A program made the position numbers and the translations under genes. The notes below the pieces were generated by a model that saw only the letters and a list, made by a program, of their open reading frames with translations, searched no databases and was not told the origin of the DNA. 34,002 nt of DNA from Candidatus Pacearchaeota archaeon. Its GTDB lineage: Archaea > Nanobdellota > Nanobdellia > Pacearchaeales > GW2011-AR1. This document shows, piece after piece, positions 9,670 to 25,948 of this stretch; the stretch's first letter is position 1; every line of letters starts with the position of its first letter. The stretch spans positions 1 to 34,002 of the forward strand of contig JAGLIS010000010.1 of the NCBI GenBank assembly GCA_023142835.1, read 5' to 3'.

Positions 9670-9859
9670 AAGTTATACGGATAATCACAGGTTTATATTA
9701 ATTTATATTATAAAAAGCCACACCACTTAACACCACTATCCAAGCCCCGAAAACTTAACACTCCCTTGGTGGGGAAATTTTATTGTAGTATCTGTTGGCC
9801 AACTCGAGTTGATAGGTGAGAATGTAGAGGATAGTTCATCAAACGAGCGAATGCTACAT

Positions 9860-21845: not shown

Positions 21846-22104
21846 TTTTCCACCCACCCTTCTCAGCCACAATTAAATCTTCCTCGACAAATGGAGCGTT
21901 TAGAAACATTAAATCCTTAAAGTCAGAATCTGTGTTCCAACCATCACCTTCTTCCCGAAATCCATCACCATTTTCAAAATGCCCTTCGCTAGCTTTAATC
22001 TTAGATAATTTCGATGCAAATTCATCTAAAAGTTTTTTTGCATCTCTCTTGATATCTTCCATTTCTTTATCAGTTATTTCACGCCACTCAAAACTTTCTT
22101 CCAT
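21838..22104 (-). CDS. gatC: Putative amidotransferase subunit C (divergent GatC)
   Basis: 88 aa; helical N-terminus and FREE...MFLNAP..EEDLIVAEK C-terminus; upstream of gatA. Confidence 0.65.
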   Translation of the reverse strand: MEESFEWREITDKEMEDIKRDAKKLLDEFASKLSKIKASEGHFENGDGFREEGDGWNTDSDFKDLMFLNAPFVEEDLIVAEKGGWKND

Positions 22105-22155
22105 TTAAATTATCGGATGCAGAAGTTTATAAATCTGGGGTTATTTGATATTTTT

Positions 22156-22491
22156 ATGGAAGAATGCATATTTTGTAAGATTATTCGTGGAGAGATACCT
22201 TGTCAGAAAGTTTTAGAAGATGATAATTTTGTTGTAATCAGGGATGCAAATCCTAAGGTTGTTGATCATTTACTTGTAATTCCTAGGGAACACTATGGGA
22301 ATTTTTTAGAGATACCTTCTGAGTTATATAGGAAACTGTTGGAGATTACAAAAAGAGCTATAGAAAAATTAGATGTAAATGAATTTAATTTAGTTGTGAA
22401 TAATGGTAAATCTGCGGGGCAGTTAATTTCACATGCTCATTTACATATTTTGCCGAGGAAAGAAGGCGACGGGTTTAGGTTGAATGTTTAA
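22156..22491 (+). CDS. HIT family nucleotide hydrolase
   Basis: CIFCKII, HLLVIP, NNGKSAGQ, HAHLH. Confidence 0.93.
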   Translation: MEECIFCKIIRGEIPCQKVLEDDNFVVIRDANPKVVDHLLVIPREHYGNFLEIPSELYRKLLEITKRAIEKLDVNEFNLVVNNGKSAGQLISHAHLHILPRKEGDGFRLNV

Positions 22492-22547
22492 CATCGCGAT
22501 TAAGAGGAAATTTCAGCAAGAAATTTCCTCTTAATCGCTGTTATACG
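22486..22547 (-). repeat. attC-like recombination site
   Basis: Perfect 19-bp arms GCGATTAAGAGGAAATTTC (22496-22514) / (22520-22538), closed by TAACA/TGTTA with a 2-nt bulge; outer cores GTTTAAC and GTTATAC. Confidence 0.8.
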
Positions 22548-23347
22548 TTTTTTCTGCAAGAAAAAATCGTCGAAGGCGACAGTATGACGCAGACACCAAA
22601 CCCTAATTTGAAAACTTAAAAGCCCATTTCCGCAACATTAATAACGAGTATATAGTTTCTATAAGACAATGAAAACTAATGTAGGGTGGGACATCGGTTC
22701 ATTGGTATATGATTTATTTACTGGTAAGGTTGATGAACAACTTTATTTGGAAGTCCTTTTAGCTCTTGGTACACTAGATGGGATTAAACTTGATGAATTT
22801 GGTTGTGGAACAGGAAATTTAACTGGTAGATTGCCAGAAACAACTAAAATTAGAGCTGTTGATTATTCTCCTATTGCAATAGCTAAAGCAAAACAAAAAA
22901 CAAGTAAAAATGTGGGTTTTTTTATTATGGATTTTTATCAAGAACAACCAAATGGTTACAAACCAGATAAGATTGTGGCTTGCAGAAGTCTTTATCATTC
23001 AGACCTGTCATTAAGTTTAGGGATATTATCTAGACATTTAGGAGATGGAGGGGAAGCTATTATTGCACATCCAACTGAAAATTGGAGAAAATATGTTACA
23101 CCAATAGTTAATGGAAAAAGAGAATTTAATTTTGTTCAATTTGTAAAATCAAATTGGAGATTTGCAAACCGCATGGGTGTGCCTTATGCATTATTCAGTG
23201 CTGATGAATTTGAAAGAGTAGGGAAACAACATTTTGATGAAGTTATAATAAATTCTGCAGGTTATGATACTCATTATCTTGTTCAGTTAAGGAAAAGGGC
23301 TTTTTCTAAAAAATAATTTGTTTGGTGTTGAGTAATATTGCGTATAA
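22492..23347. mobile_element. Solitary integron-like cassette 2 (856 bp)
   Basis: TAACAT at both junctions (22489-22494, 23345-23350); GTTATACG (22540-22547) exactly complementary to CGTATAAC (23341-23348); removal restores GTTTAAC-ATGAG-GTTATCA. Confidence 0.75.
22669..23316 (+). CDS. Class I SAM-dependent methyltransferase (cassette cargo)
   Basis: DEFGCGTG motif I, AVDYSP..I..AK motif II, RSLYH. Confidence 0.85.
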   Translation: MKTNVGWDIGSLVYDLFTGKVDEQLYLEVLLALGTLDGIKLDEFGCGTGNLTGRLPETTKIRAVDYSPIAIAKAKQKTSKNVGFFIMDFYQEQPNGYKPDKIVACRSLYHSDLSLSLGILSRHLGDGGEAIIAHPTENWRKYVTPIVNGKREFNFVQFVKSNWRFANRMGVPYALFSADEFERVGKQHFDEVIINSAGYDTHYLVQLRKRAFSKK

Positions 23348-23360
23348 CATGAGGTTATCA
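23342..23360. other. attI/attG-like simple site (AAC-N5-GTT) at cassette junction
   Basis: GTATAAC-ATGAG-GTTATCA: two inverted 7-bp cores separated by 5 bp. Confidence 0.65.
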
Positions 23361-23419
23361 ATAGTTTATTATTGATAATCTCCTAATAAGTATAGAAAAC
23401 AATAATTTCATCCATCTAA

Positions 23420-24802
23420 CTACTTCCCTTTCTTCCCAATATCCAACTTAATATGAACATCTTTTAACTGCCTGTCCGAAAGCGGGCTAGGTGCATCAAC
23501 CATCAAATCCTTCGCCTCCTTATTCTTCGGAAACGCAATCGTCTCCCTAATAGATTCTACTCCAAGAATCACTTGAATTAATCTATCCAATCCCCACGCT
23601 ATTCCACCATGTGGCGGTGCTCCAAATTTTAGTGCGTCTAATAAGAAACCAAATTTCTCTTTCTGTTCTTTCTTCCCGATTCCAAGAACCTCGAAAACTT
23701 TCGCTTGAATATCTTCTTCATGAATTCTTATCGAGCCTCCACATATCTCAACCCCATTTAGAACTGTATCATACGCAATTGATTTCGCGGTTTTAGGGTC
23801 TTTGTTAAACGACTCCATTTCTGGATGTGTAAACGGGTGATGTATTGCAACAGTTTTATTTTCTTCTTTTGAATATTCAAATAATGGAAAATCTACAACC
23901 CAACAAAAAGCGAATTCCTTGGAGTCATTTTTATCTTTTCTTAAATCAGGTCTATCTGTTTTATATTTTTTCATAGCCTCATCATGAGTAATTTTTTGAA
24001 AGGGTGTTTTAACTTCGACGTTTAAAATTTCTTTCCAAATCTTTTTTATAATCTTCTCGGTTAGAGCCATAACATCTTCTTGACTAACAAAAGACATCTC
24101 GATATCAAGTTGTGTAAATTCGGGTTGTCTGTCCGACCGAAGATCCTCGTCCCTCATGCATCTTGCAATCTGAAAATATTTCTCAAATCCTGCCACCATC
24201 AAAAGTTGCTTAAATAACTGGGGTGATTGTGGAAGCGCGAAAAATTTCCCAGGCTGTGTTCTCGACGGAACGATATAATCCCTAGCTCCTTCTGGCGTAG
24301 ACTTCGCAAGCATCGGAGTCTCAAACTCATTAAACCCTTCCTCATATAATGCATCTCGAATTATCCTAACAACTTTACTCCTCAAAATTAAATTCTTCTG
24401 CATCTCTGGTCTTCTCAAATCTAAATACCTATATTTCAGACGGATATCCTCGCCAACTTCATCATTATCTATGTCAAACGGGAGTGCTGAACATTTATTG
24501 TATATTTCAAGTTCCTGAATTTTTACCTCGACATTTCCAGCAGGTGAATTTTTATTCTCCGTTCCCGTCGGCCTTGAACTAACATTACCTTTAATTTTAA
24601 TACATGATTCCTTCGTCAAAGATTTTGCTATTTCGAAATTTTTCTCATCCTTCGCAGTAACAATTGTTTGGACCGAACCAGTCACATCCCTTATTTCTAA
24701 AAAAATTAACTTACCGTGCTCTCTAATTGTATCAACCCATCCAGCTATTTCAACTTCATTTCCCTCGAGAGAAGAGAGCTCCTTAATCATTGTTCTTGCC
24801 AT
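23420..24802 (-). CDS. aspS: Aspartyl-tRNA synthetase, bacterial type lacking the GAD insertion, probably non-discriminating
   Basis: RLKYRYLDLR, STPEGARDY, ALPQSPQLFKQLLM, RDEDLRSDRQPEFTQLDIEMSF, GAPPHGGIAWGLDR, IAFPK; only 460 aa. Confidence 0.95.
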   Translation of the reverse strand: MARTMIKELSSLEGNEVEIAGWVDTIREHGKLIFLEIRDVTGSVQTIVTAKDEKNFEIAKSLTKESCIKIKGNVSSRPTGTENKNSPAGNVEVKIQELEIYNKCSALPFDIDNDEVGEDIRLKYRYLDLRRPEMQKNLILRSKVVRIIRDALYEEGFNEFETPMLAKSTPEGARDYIVPSRTQPGKFFALPQSPQLFKQLLMVAGFEKYFQIARCMRDEDLRSDRQPEFTQLDIEMSFVSQEDVMALTEKIIKKIWKEILNVEVKTPFQKITHDEAMKKYKTDRPDLRKDKNDSKEFAFCWVVDFPLFEYSKEENKTVAIHHPFTHPEMESFNKDPKTAKSIAYDTVLNGVEICGGSIRIHEEDIQAKVFEVLGIGKKEQKEKFGFLLDALKFGAPPHGGIAWGLDRLIQVILGVESIRETIAFPKNKEAKDLMVDAPSPLSDRQLKDVHIKLDIGKKGK

Positions 24803-25033: not shown

Positions 25034-25092
25034 AGTTCTGTAAACATCCTAAAATGATATCTTTTGAGAAATAAATTTCGCAGTACTGCATG

Positions 25093-25938
25093 TTAAACTC
25101 AATAAAAAATCAGCTAAAAATTGAAGGGGGCAAAAATTTATTTGGTTATTTTCACAATACCTAGAAGTGCATCTTTTTTGTTTTTTGGATTCTTAAATTT
25201 ATATAAAAAATTTATCAATTTTCTTCTAACAGGTGGTGCTTTTGGATTTACCTTTCTTGCTTTTTTCAACTTTGTTGAATCATAAATTAGTAATAAATCA
25301 ATTCGAACTGGATAACCTCTATCCAAAGGTGTGTGCTCGTAAAAATGCCAAACTGTATCACCAAATTCTGTGGGGTATTTGTTATCTTTTGGAATGACTA
25401 ACGTTCCATTCTTAATTGTGATTGTTCCTGCTTGAATATCATAATCATACCCACTGAATTCATCATGACACACACCTTTTCTTTTCAGATCATATTTGTC
25501 TGTCCCAGTTCTCAAAACAATATTTGCTAATTTATTCAATGATAATCCCTTATGATCATCTGATCCAATAGCACGAAAAATATATTTACCATCCGAAAAA
25601 CTTTTTTCCAATACTGCATCTACCTTTTTTCCCAATTTTAAATAATTAGGTTTCTTCTTCACATTATATTCAGGAAGATACACTTCTATTACTTTAACTA
25701 CCATATTATACTTCACAATTATATACCTTTATTAAATTTTTGCCCCTTGATTCTTTTTATTAATGGTGCTTCGCACTTGATACGCTGACTTTTTACTTTG
25801 GATTTTTCCCTTCGGGAACGTTGCACTAAAATCCAATCCCTTGCGGGAGAATTTAACAGCGATTAAGAGATTCCGAAGTCTTGCAGACTTCTCCATCCAA
25901 ATTTTCACCTACGGCGAAAACTTCTCTTAATCCTGATG
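25093..25938. mobile_element. Solitary integron-like cassette 3 (846 bp)
   Basis: Start G|TTAAACTC complementary (8/9) to GAATTTAAC (25849-25857); ATGT at both junctions; terminal attC-like site shares 16 nt with the cassette 2 site. Confidence 0.7.
25138..25704 (-). CDS. Hypothetical protein (cassette cargo)
   Basis: About 188 aa from ATG 25704 (track start GTG 25716); TATA-like TTTAATAA about 25 nt upstream. Confidence 0.75.
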   Translation of the reverse strand: MVVKVIEVYLPEYNVKKKPNYLKLGKKVDAVLEKSFSDGKYIFRAIGSDDHKGLSLNKLANIVLRTGTDKYDLKRKGVCHDEFSGYDYDIQAGTITIKNGTLVIPKDNKYPTEFGDTVWHFYEHTPLDRGYPVRIDLLLIYDSTKLKKARKVNPKAPPVRRKLINFLYKFKNPKNKKDALLGIVKITK

Positions 25939-25944
25939 TCATCC
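25849..25944 (+). repeat. attC-like recombination site
   Basis: GAATTTAAC-AGC-GATTAAGAGA...TCTCTTAATC-CTGAT-GTC with two internal hairpins (GAAGTCT-TGC-AGACTTC; TTTTCACC-TAC-GGCGAAAA). Confidence 0.75.
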
Positions 25945-25948
25945 ATAA

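Follow-up and report, generated by a model that had tools for sequence, protein, structure and literature searches.

How does a methyltransferase gene come to lie between two convergent core genes of a streamlined archaeal genome, framed on both sides by folded, non-coding sequence? The question is raised by positions 22484 to 23405 of a stretch of 34,002 nucleotides, here called the window, which is contig JAGLIS010000010.1 (C2) of GenBank assembly GCA_023142835.1 from a Candidatus Pacearchaeota archaeon. The assembly comprises 0.80 Mb in 66 contigs, with 33% GC and a completeness of 81.6%. At this point of the window a HIT-family gene on the plus strand and the gene aspS on the minus strand converge, and the methyltransferase gene lies on the plus strand between them. 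A sequence-only reading had described the arrangement as a cassette with a complete integration geometry and with an empty site that could be reconstructed at the HIT stop codon. We propose that the locus is probably one orphan cassette of an integron-like gene-capture system, which is common in this family of DPANN archaea.

A cassette bounded by complementary cores

The element is built of short modules, for which the names M1 to M5 were coined in this analysis. M1, an attC-like folded site at 22484-22547 on the plus strand, consists of an outer core GTTTAAC (22486-22492), AT plus one base, a 19-bp stem (22496-22538), a T, and an inner core GTTATACG (22540-22547). The HIT stop codon TAA (22489-22491) lies within the outer core, and the stem, which begins 4 nt past it, is a perfect hairpin with arms at 22496-22514 and 22520-22538 and a loop of 5 nt. 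As DNA, the 64-nt site folds at -23.1 kcal/mol (z = -10.8). The inner core, on the plus strand, starts the cassette and is the exact reverse complement of the cassette-end core CGTATAAC at 23341-23348, and the pair brackets the methyltransferase gene. On the two strands of the window together, the 8-mer GTTATACG is present three times where 0.37 copies are expected, a count that no shuffle out of 100 attained. The left junction is TAAC/AT at 22488-22493 on the plus strand (the slash marks the joint, here and below), where the crossover would fall at AA/C, which is G/TT on the minus strand.

Inward of M1 lies the conserved 5' framework M2 (22548-22601, plus strand), with two hairpins, one T-rich (22548-22566) and one of GC with the loop GAA (22567-22579), followed by a conserved 13-mer (22580-22592) and a closing-stem strand ACACCAAAC (22593-22601). 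Its DNA is 83-94% identical to copies in other genomes that carry different cargo. Beyond the cargo, the conserved 3' framework M3 (23320-23348, plus strand) runs from a closing-stem strand GTTTGGTGT (23320-23328) through a conserved 12-mer (23329-23340) to the cassette-end core; the same 3' end was found at seven further loci. The two closing-stem strands pair over 9 bp around the cargo, and both 22548-22601 and 23320-23348 belong to the conserved framework, not to the cargo. M4, an attI-like or dif-like site (23344-23405, plus strand), follows. It reads TAAC-AT, then 13-nt inverted arms around the spacer GTTTAT, then about 23-25 conserved bases, with no recombinase gene behind it. Its hairpin is begun by GTTATCA (23354-23360), preceded by ATGAG (23349-23353), and has arms at 23351-23363 and 23370-23382 around the 6-nt spacer. 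For the motifs that it named, the sequence-only reading was accurate as to both position and sequence, and deleting 22492-23347 yields the junction exactly as it had been written. It had overlooked the second hairpin, that of M4, the framework nature of about 60 nt past the cassette start and about 30 nt ahead of its end, and the closing stem.

Two smaller observations concern these modules. The framework hairpins in M1 and M2, in the window (22567-22579) and at three other loci, often end in triloops, GAA or GCA, closed by a C-G or T-A pair. The GNA-type triloop motif is unusually stable in single-stranded DNA, and such loops fit structure at the DNA level rather than the RNA level. The third copy of GTTATACG, at 9672-9679, abuts the start codon of a 113-aa open reading frame (ORF) on the minus strand; it is surrounded by none of M1-M4, is probably there by chance, and was not retained as part of a cassette.

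The architecture is that of a family. When 22480-23425 was compared by BLAST with 400 genomes of the same order, two short non-coding blocks, at about 22506-22615 and about 23322-23415, recurred in many of them at 80-94% identity, and some of the block pairs lay 250-1000 bp apart with other genes in between. The grammar of M1 runs through a core xxTAAC, AT plus one base, a stem strand of 11-12 nt, AAGT, a first hairpin, ATTTGG, a second hairpin, the complementary stem strand, a T and a core GTTxxxxx. A cassette then continues with M2 (about 60-100 nt, including small hairpins), the cargo, which may point either way relative to the sites, and M3, which ends in a core xxxxxAAC and leads to the next M1 or to a terminal module. 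Arrays of three cassettes with this grammar were found at two loci. The window M1 is a shortened version, without the first inner hairpin that the three-way junction of the family has, and because of this it reads as one long perfect hairpin; it is the sole such row among the 17 aligned copies.

Pairing within M1 is conserved while its sequence changes. Across the 17 copies, 88.3% of cells in the alignment are paired, compared with 67.8% in shuffles (none of 500 as high) and 37-47% when partners are slid. Both sides change in 19 of the 28 pairs, and in 9 of the 11 pairs of the main stem; pairing in the L stem reaches 96.8%, and 9 of its 11 pairs are compensatory. AAC, GTT and the T two bases past AAC are invariant in all 17 sites. 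By this alignment and pairing, M1 is an imperfect palindrome with conserved AAC and GTT that folds into a hairpin, as attC sites do. M1 is also asymmetric in a constant way: core and stem are separated by 3 nt on the 5' arm but by a single nucleotide, the invariant T, on the 3' arm. The window stem is perfect and has no obvious unpaired spacer. In the orientation given below, the 2-nt excess of M1, which is on the AAC-side arm, would stand on the arm opposite to that of the extrahelical bases in classical attC sites.

A further regularity is in the cores. Within the same cassette, the start and end cores are complementary at 4.35 of the 5 variable bases on average (5 of 5 in the window), perfectly so in 11 of 17 cassettes and across seven core sequences. 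The two cores that flank one M1 are complementary at only 2.09 of 5, with 3 of 35 perfect. Complementarity within the cassette is the signature of a circle opened at G/TT. The claim that the inner core is complementary to the start of its own cassette, not to the adjacent outer core, made from the window alone, holds for the family. This is also how the boundaries of integron cassettes are recognized, by G/TT and an inner core that matches the cassette's own start. The closing stem follows a similar rule. When the 5' framework is compared with the 3' framework of its own cassette, the longest stretch of exact complementarity has a mean length of 11.5 nt, as against 6.9 nt in 272 mismatched pairings, and it reaches at least 9 nt in 13 of 17 cassettes compared with 19 of the 272.

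A covariance model of M1 (R1) was used to survey 150 other genomes of the same family, one per genus, at E <= 0.001. It matches in 80 of the 150, up to 18 times per genome. In the source genome M1 occurs in at least 6 places, on contigs C66, C65 and C53 (twice) and in the window (twice), and the copy described above scores 49.3 bits on the plus strand against 23.6 bits on the minus strand. The two sites in the window lie 3.3 kb apart on opposite strands, and no tyrosine recombinase is encoded on the contig, a situation that corresponds to single or clustered attC sites lacking an integron integrase (SALIN/CALIN).

The terminal site and its linked recombinase

Altogether 23 copies of M4 were examined, 22 in one list and one more at a further locus (L060). 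The conserved part is TAAC-AT followed by a 13-6-13 palindrome, the arms of which change with compensation at three loci. In 4 of the 22 listed copies the spacer is ATAAAC or ATAAAT and looks like GTTTAT inverted, with the orientation of the flanks kept, which may reflect recombination within the palindrome.

The gene linked to M4 in relatives encodes a tyrosine recombinase. In 9 of the 23 copies a gene for a XerA paralog of 267-275 aa starts just downstream, and all 9 such genes, which we call Group I, in the loci studied have M4 just upstream. Among themselves, Group I proteins share 67-79% identity, and with the housekeeping XerA group, to which the only full tyrosine recombinase of the source genome (on C51) belongs, they share 40-48%; both kinds occur together in the five genomes checked. 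The site-linked recombinases score 249.7 and 238.2 bits with the XerA_Arch profile (cut-off 220). With TIGR02249 (cut-off 265) they reach 213 and 203 bits, and the match is split in two, leaving out profile positions 182-236. This is the region of the IntI-specific extra domain; Group I recombinases lack it, and they are not IntI-clade integrases with an additional domain. Their best solved relative is XerA (4a8e), ahead of IntI4 (2a3v). The recombinase platform is chromosomal, because Group I genes overlap or abut core genes downstream; in three genera that core gene looks, by eye, like a topoisomerase.

In relatives, the arrangement of cassettes and recombinase resembles that at attI. Cassette ends abut the TAAC/AT edge of a recombinase-linked M4 at five loci, and M5, another terminal module, is likewise abutted by cassette ends and linked to a recombinase at two (L110 and L112). 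Other recombinase paralogs stand beside arrays at three further loci. Over the 150 genomes, where Group I genes were counted at 59% identity or more among the matches listed, M1 was found in 25 of 34 genomes with a listed Group I gene and in 55 of 116 others; the genomes are related, and the association is a rough one. At one locus, remnants of a recombinase gene lie behind M4.

Both strands of an array can be parsed with attC logic, each M1 body being flanked by cores from two cassettes. The orientation is settled because the ends of arrays differ: the recombinase-proximal module has the TAAC/AT side only, and the distal M1 meets foreign DNA via its AAC core. The minus-strand direction chosen by the sequence-only reading is thereby supported. 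On that strand the layout is the recombinase (absent here), the attI-like M4, G/TT, the cassette, the attC-like M1, G/TT and the flank, which is the layout of a classical integron. In other genomes M4 lies directly upstream of the divergently placed XerA-paralog gene. The predicted cassette starts at G/TTATACG, holds the methyltransferase gene with a presumptive promoter of its own, antisense to the array direction, and passes into an M1 that would end at G/TTAAAC, overlapping the HIT stop codon. As a circle, the cassette may fold its framework of about 230 nt (closing stem, M3, core stem, M1 stem with its junction, and M2) as single-stranded DNA. A Xer-type recombinase would then exchange strands at G/TT between this folded site and the TAAC/AT edge of M4, in a manner analogous to the exchange of integron integrases between attC and attI. 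The window copy itself may still be mobile by such a route.

Empty sites, rival explanations and known systems

The pre-insertion state was sought in relatives. Twelve of them keep HIT and aspS convergent, and in 8 of the 12 intervals the aligned ends of the two genes are no more than 37 nt apart. In the closest relative (G012), which is distant (its HIT protein is 75% identical in amino acids), the HIT and aspS stop codons lie 5 bp apart; homology with the window breaks off immediately behind the HIT TAA and is found again from the aspS stop onward, which makes 22492-23419 (928 bp) the extra DNA and not just 22492-23347. Of the breakpoints that had been predicted, the left one agrees with TAA/C, while the right one falls at the aspS stop (23419/23420) and not at 23347/23348. 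A TAAC at 23416-23420, on the outer right edge of the block, was considered as a boundary signature and dropped as chance, no equivalent being present at the boundary of the second cassette in the window. The expectation that the host gene would be left intact is borne out, as the TAA lies inside the site and the HIT C-terminus and length are the same as in orthologues.

The reconstructed empty site fared less well. The AAC-N5-GTT simple site, which had been expected to be its form, is not conserved, GTT occurring only in the window copy among the 22 listed copies of M4. No M1-M4 module occurs in 29 HIT-orthologue loci, a search aimed at the modules and not at the joined empty-site and circle strings themselves. 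Contigs of four public metagenome runs, from two studies, were also aligned to 21900-23900; in none of them is 22492-23347 skipped by a joint, and none contains a circle junction. Excision is not refuted by this result, because contigs drop rare variants, and it has no bearing on a rare excised form. The cassette geometry is right, and the reconstructed empty site is hypothetical.

Several observations weigh against reading the locus as an orphan cassette of an integron-like system. M4 is found in none of the 12 orthologous HIT-aspS intervals, and the difference from relatives is the whole block of M1, cassette and M4. The second cassette repeats the pattern, its pre-insertion state not having been seen and its whole block being extra relative to the closest relative. 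Additionally, no truly empty M4 was met, every inspected copy being preceded by cassette-end-like sequence. The source assembly, which is 81.6% complete, contains no Group I recombinase. On C13, upstream of a topoisomerase-like gene, where the Group I gene is located in three other genera, the intergenic region is intact and holds no recombinase. Nine genomes with a Group I gene have no M1 match, and the association between the two is modest. The cargo runs against the direction of the array, an orientation uncommon in classical integrons. The window M1, without the hairpin that the other 16 aligned copies keep, may be decayed. Finally, the public contigs all break at the repeat 22528-22567 and none spans HIT, M1 and cargo, and extra cassettes could have been collapsed in the assembly.

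One rival is a different history for the same family, in which the 928-bp block 22492-23419 came as a unit, or is the remnant of a platform that has lost its recombinase, with no insertion into a pre-existing M4 by HIT. Such a history is less likely, though by no means remote. It accounts for the absence of the whole block from relatives, with 5 bp between the stops in the closest of them and gaps of at most 37 nt in 8 of 12, and for the same pattern at the second cassette, where 13 nt in the closest relative stand against 915 bp including the terminal module. Four single-cassette units without recombinase in the source genome (two in the window, one each on C65 and C66) are in keeping with it, and the remnants behind M4 at one locus indicate that recombinase loss does occur. 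Yet no boundary signature or moving mechanism was found for a whole-block unit, no recombinase remnant lies in the 37 nt between M4 and aspS, and the nearest relative is so distant that intermediates may be unsampled.

Other mechanisms have far less in their favour. It is very unlikely that the framework is a structured RNA (a ribozyme, an intron-like or a regulatory element) with the cargo gene in a loop. The strong covariation, the strand preference of the model (49.3 against 23.6 bits) and a closing stem around the cargo, as in ORF-bearing introns, would suit it. Yet a search of 22300-23500 against Rfam at E <= 10 gave only sub-threshold, microRNA-like hairpin matches and no family at threshold; the promoter-like motif of the cargo lies downstream of M1 and M2, and a transcript from it would lack the 5' half; cargo orientation varies relative to the sites, and the boundaries follow a DNA-recombination rule. 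Highly improbable, too, is a hairpin-ended unit moved as single-stranded DNA by a HUH transposase of the IS200/IS605 type or by a relative associated with repetitive extragenic palindromes (REP). One Y1 transposase is encoded in the genome (C3:8587-9066, PF01797, E 1.2e-30), the ends of the element are hairpins with GNA-type triloops, which are stable in DNA, and insertion follows the short conserved motif TAAC. However, the IS copy on C3 has its own, unrelated flanking hairpins; tandem arrays, and cores that are complementary at start and end, follow attC logic and not that of IS200/IS605 ends; and across genera the sites are physically linked to a gene for a tyrosine recombinase. No Y1 transposase gene lies next to the cassettes in the loci read. 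Scarcely any weight can be given to a terminator-like hairpin after HIT combined with a chance 8-bp inverted repeat. The hairpin does stand directly after a stop codon, between convergent genes; none of the 29 HIT-orthologue loci has it, however, no shuffle out of 100 reached the 8-mer count, and the site, supported by covariation, recurs in 80 of 150 related genomes. Together with the core rule, this recurrence and covariation refute the terminator and chance reading.

The C3 element deserves a remark of its own. Its IS200-type Y1 gene (159 aa, in the region C3:8587-9100) has the same GC-rich hairpin on both sides and adjoins sequence that resembles the cassette framework, and the element may have been inserted into a cassette region.

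An integron-like cassette, the reading that we prefer, can be compared with known systems. Archaeal integrons with a true IntI have been published; integrons are reported for 75 of 6718 genomes, with singleton attCs excluded (Ghaly et al. 2022, PMC9668308). The Nanoarchaeota CALINs of that survey may include sites of the present kind. Like integrons, the system has single-gene cassettes bounded by an imperfect-palindrome site with AAC and GTT cores, an inner core that is complementary to the cassette's own start and implies a G/TT crossover, and tandem arrays. In relatives the recombinase gene lies beside a distinct terminal site and points away from the array. Sites are homogeneous within a lineage while the cargo is diverse, and orphan cassettes without an integrase exist. 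The system differs from integrons in its linked recombinase, a XerA paralog of 267-275 aa that lacks the extra domain specific to IntI; in its terminal site, which forms a perfect 13-6-13 palindrome; and in its attC-like site, where a conserved three-way junction is extended outward by about 90 nt of conserved framework and by a stem that closes around the cargo. Additionally, the cargo may take either orientation and has a putative promoter of its own, and in the source genome single cassettes are scattered over the 3' ends of core genes.

Systems based on Xer recombinases and dif sites offer a further comparison. The CTX phage, an integrative mobile element exploiting Xer (IMEX), integrates as folded single-stranded DNA that mimics a Xer site. 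In the present system a Xer-family recombinase is the likely enzyme, and M4 has the layout of dif, two inverted arms around a 6-bp spacer. The recombinase is nevertheless a dedicated paralog beside its site and not the housekeeping enzyme; the cassettes are not flanked by pairs of double-stranded dif-like sites, only the M4 end being dif-like; and insertions lie outside the palindrome, at TAAC/AT, not in the spacer. The cassettes are thus neither Xer/dif modules nor IMEX. The dif modules of Acinetobacter plasmids are the nearest Xer-based analogue (PMC6449649, PMC13141974). With IS200/IS605 elements and REP and their associated transposases (RAYT), the cassettes share hairpin-ended units, insertion by a short motif and no visible target duplication; core complementarity, tandem arrays and the link to a tyrosine recombinase set them apart.

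Cargo, host genome and wider meaning

The cargo gene (22669-23316, plus strand) encodes a class I S-adenosylmethionine-dependent methyltransferase of 215 aa (Pfam PF08242, PF13649, PF13847), for which no NCBIfam model reached its cut-off. It has no match in 48 genomes of the same genus and only weak matches, at 25-34% identity, in 4 of 100 relatives; homologues at 50-73% identity are found in other DPANN lineages. In the 10 homologue loci that were fetched it is an ordinary gene among unrelated neighbours, with no M1-M4 nearby. The promoter-like sequence AACATTAATAA (22634-22644, plus strand), about 25 nt upstream of the start codon, belongs to the cargo and would serve as its promoter. It also precedes the non-cassette homologues at three loci, and a one-base variant precedes that at a fourth. 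Because the homologues elsewhere are non-cassette genes with the same promoter-like motif, a resident methyltransferase gene with its promoter seems to have been framed as a cassette. A PADLOC match of the protein to mad2 (30 bits) was set aside as weak, generic methyltransferase similarity.

The second cassette of the same family in the window (25034-25948, minus strand) is presumably the one that the sequence-only reading counted as its first. It has an M1 at 25946-25850 (R1 55.6 bits), whose outer core reads GAC and not AAC, a 192-aa cargo ORF (25716-25138) without a family match, a 13-bp closing stem and the terminal module M5, which is also found upstream of recombinase genes at three loci (L110, L112 and L113). 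It sits between the stop of a GatE-like gene and a 53-aa ORF. In the closest relative 13 nt separate the GatE-like gene stop from the small ORF stop, compared with 915 bp in the window including the terminal module. A resemblance between the end of M5 and the 3' end of gatE in that relative was dropped, as only about 16 nt of it lie outside the shared small ORF. Elsewhere in the source genome, C65:3600-4260 carries M1, a 129-aa ORF and M4, and C66:14897-15580 carries M1, an antisense ORF and M5; with the two in the window these make the four single-cassette units, each with a recombinase-less terminal module. A small array (C53:2400-4100) and degenerate copies (C42:14850-15650) also have no recombinase beside them. 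A 331-aa open frame at C52:2-997, cut by the end of its 2.9-kb contig, is 44% identical over 92 aa to a Group I enzyme. It has a distant tyrosine-recombinase-like core, missed by the PF00589 search at E <= 0.01, and may be the integrase of a virus or another integrated element.

The flanking genes are housekeeping genes of a genome in which profile searches identify an archaeal-type XerA and a class II aspartyl-tRNA synthetase (AspRS). The HIT-family gene (22117-22491, plus strand; 124 aa, intact; Pfam PF01230, E 7.1e-22) has orthologues in all 101 genomes searched. On the right border of the extra block, aspS (23420-24802, minus strand; 460 aa; Pfam PF00152, E 5e-123) is 92% identical to the orthologue of the closest relative. 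At the same convergent junction, 4 of the 12 relatives carry other inserts of 236-334 nt without M1-M4, two of which share a tiny lysine-rich ORF behind a Shine-Dalgarno-like GGAGG, and the junction looks like a general hotspot of gain.

In the four metagenome runs, the summed contig depth in the M1/M2 bin (22503-22569) is 68-337, compared with roughly 0.4-13 in the flanking bins, and the M3/M4 bin (23307-23440) is raised in two of the four. The M1-M4 modules are therefore high-copy in cold-seep and marine-sediment communities, where they break assemblies.

These data lead to a broader proposal, to which we give nearly, though not quite, even weight. DPANN archaea may run a second, independently built kind of integron, with a XerA paralog lacking the IntI domain, a folded site of about 230 nt with a stem that loops out the cargo, and lone attI-like pads at the 3' ends of core genes, which would explain cassettes scattered through a streamlined genome rather than stacked on a single platform. 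No account of a cassette system of the Xer type in archaea came up in a literature search. Recombination of folded attC sites is held to require the IntI-specific domain. If the proposal is true, a G/TT cassette system beside a plain Xer-type enzyme would mean that integron-like gene capture is possible without the IntI domain, and it would bear on the origin of integrons from Xer recombinases. The methyltransferase, a resident gene in other lineages that is here packaged with its promoter in a cassette frame, would offer a rare view of cassette genesis. For ultra-small symbiotic archaea, the system would provide a concrete route to the acquisition of accessory genes.

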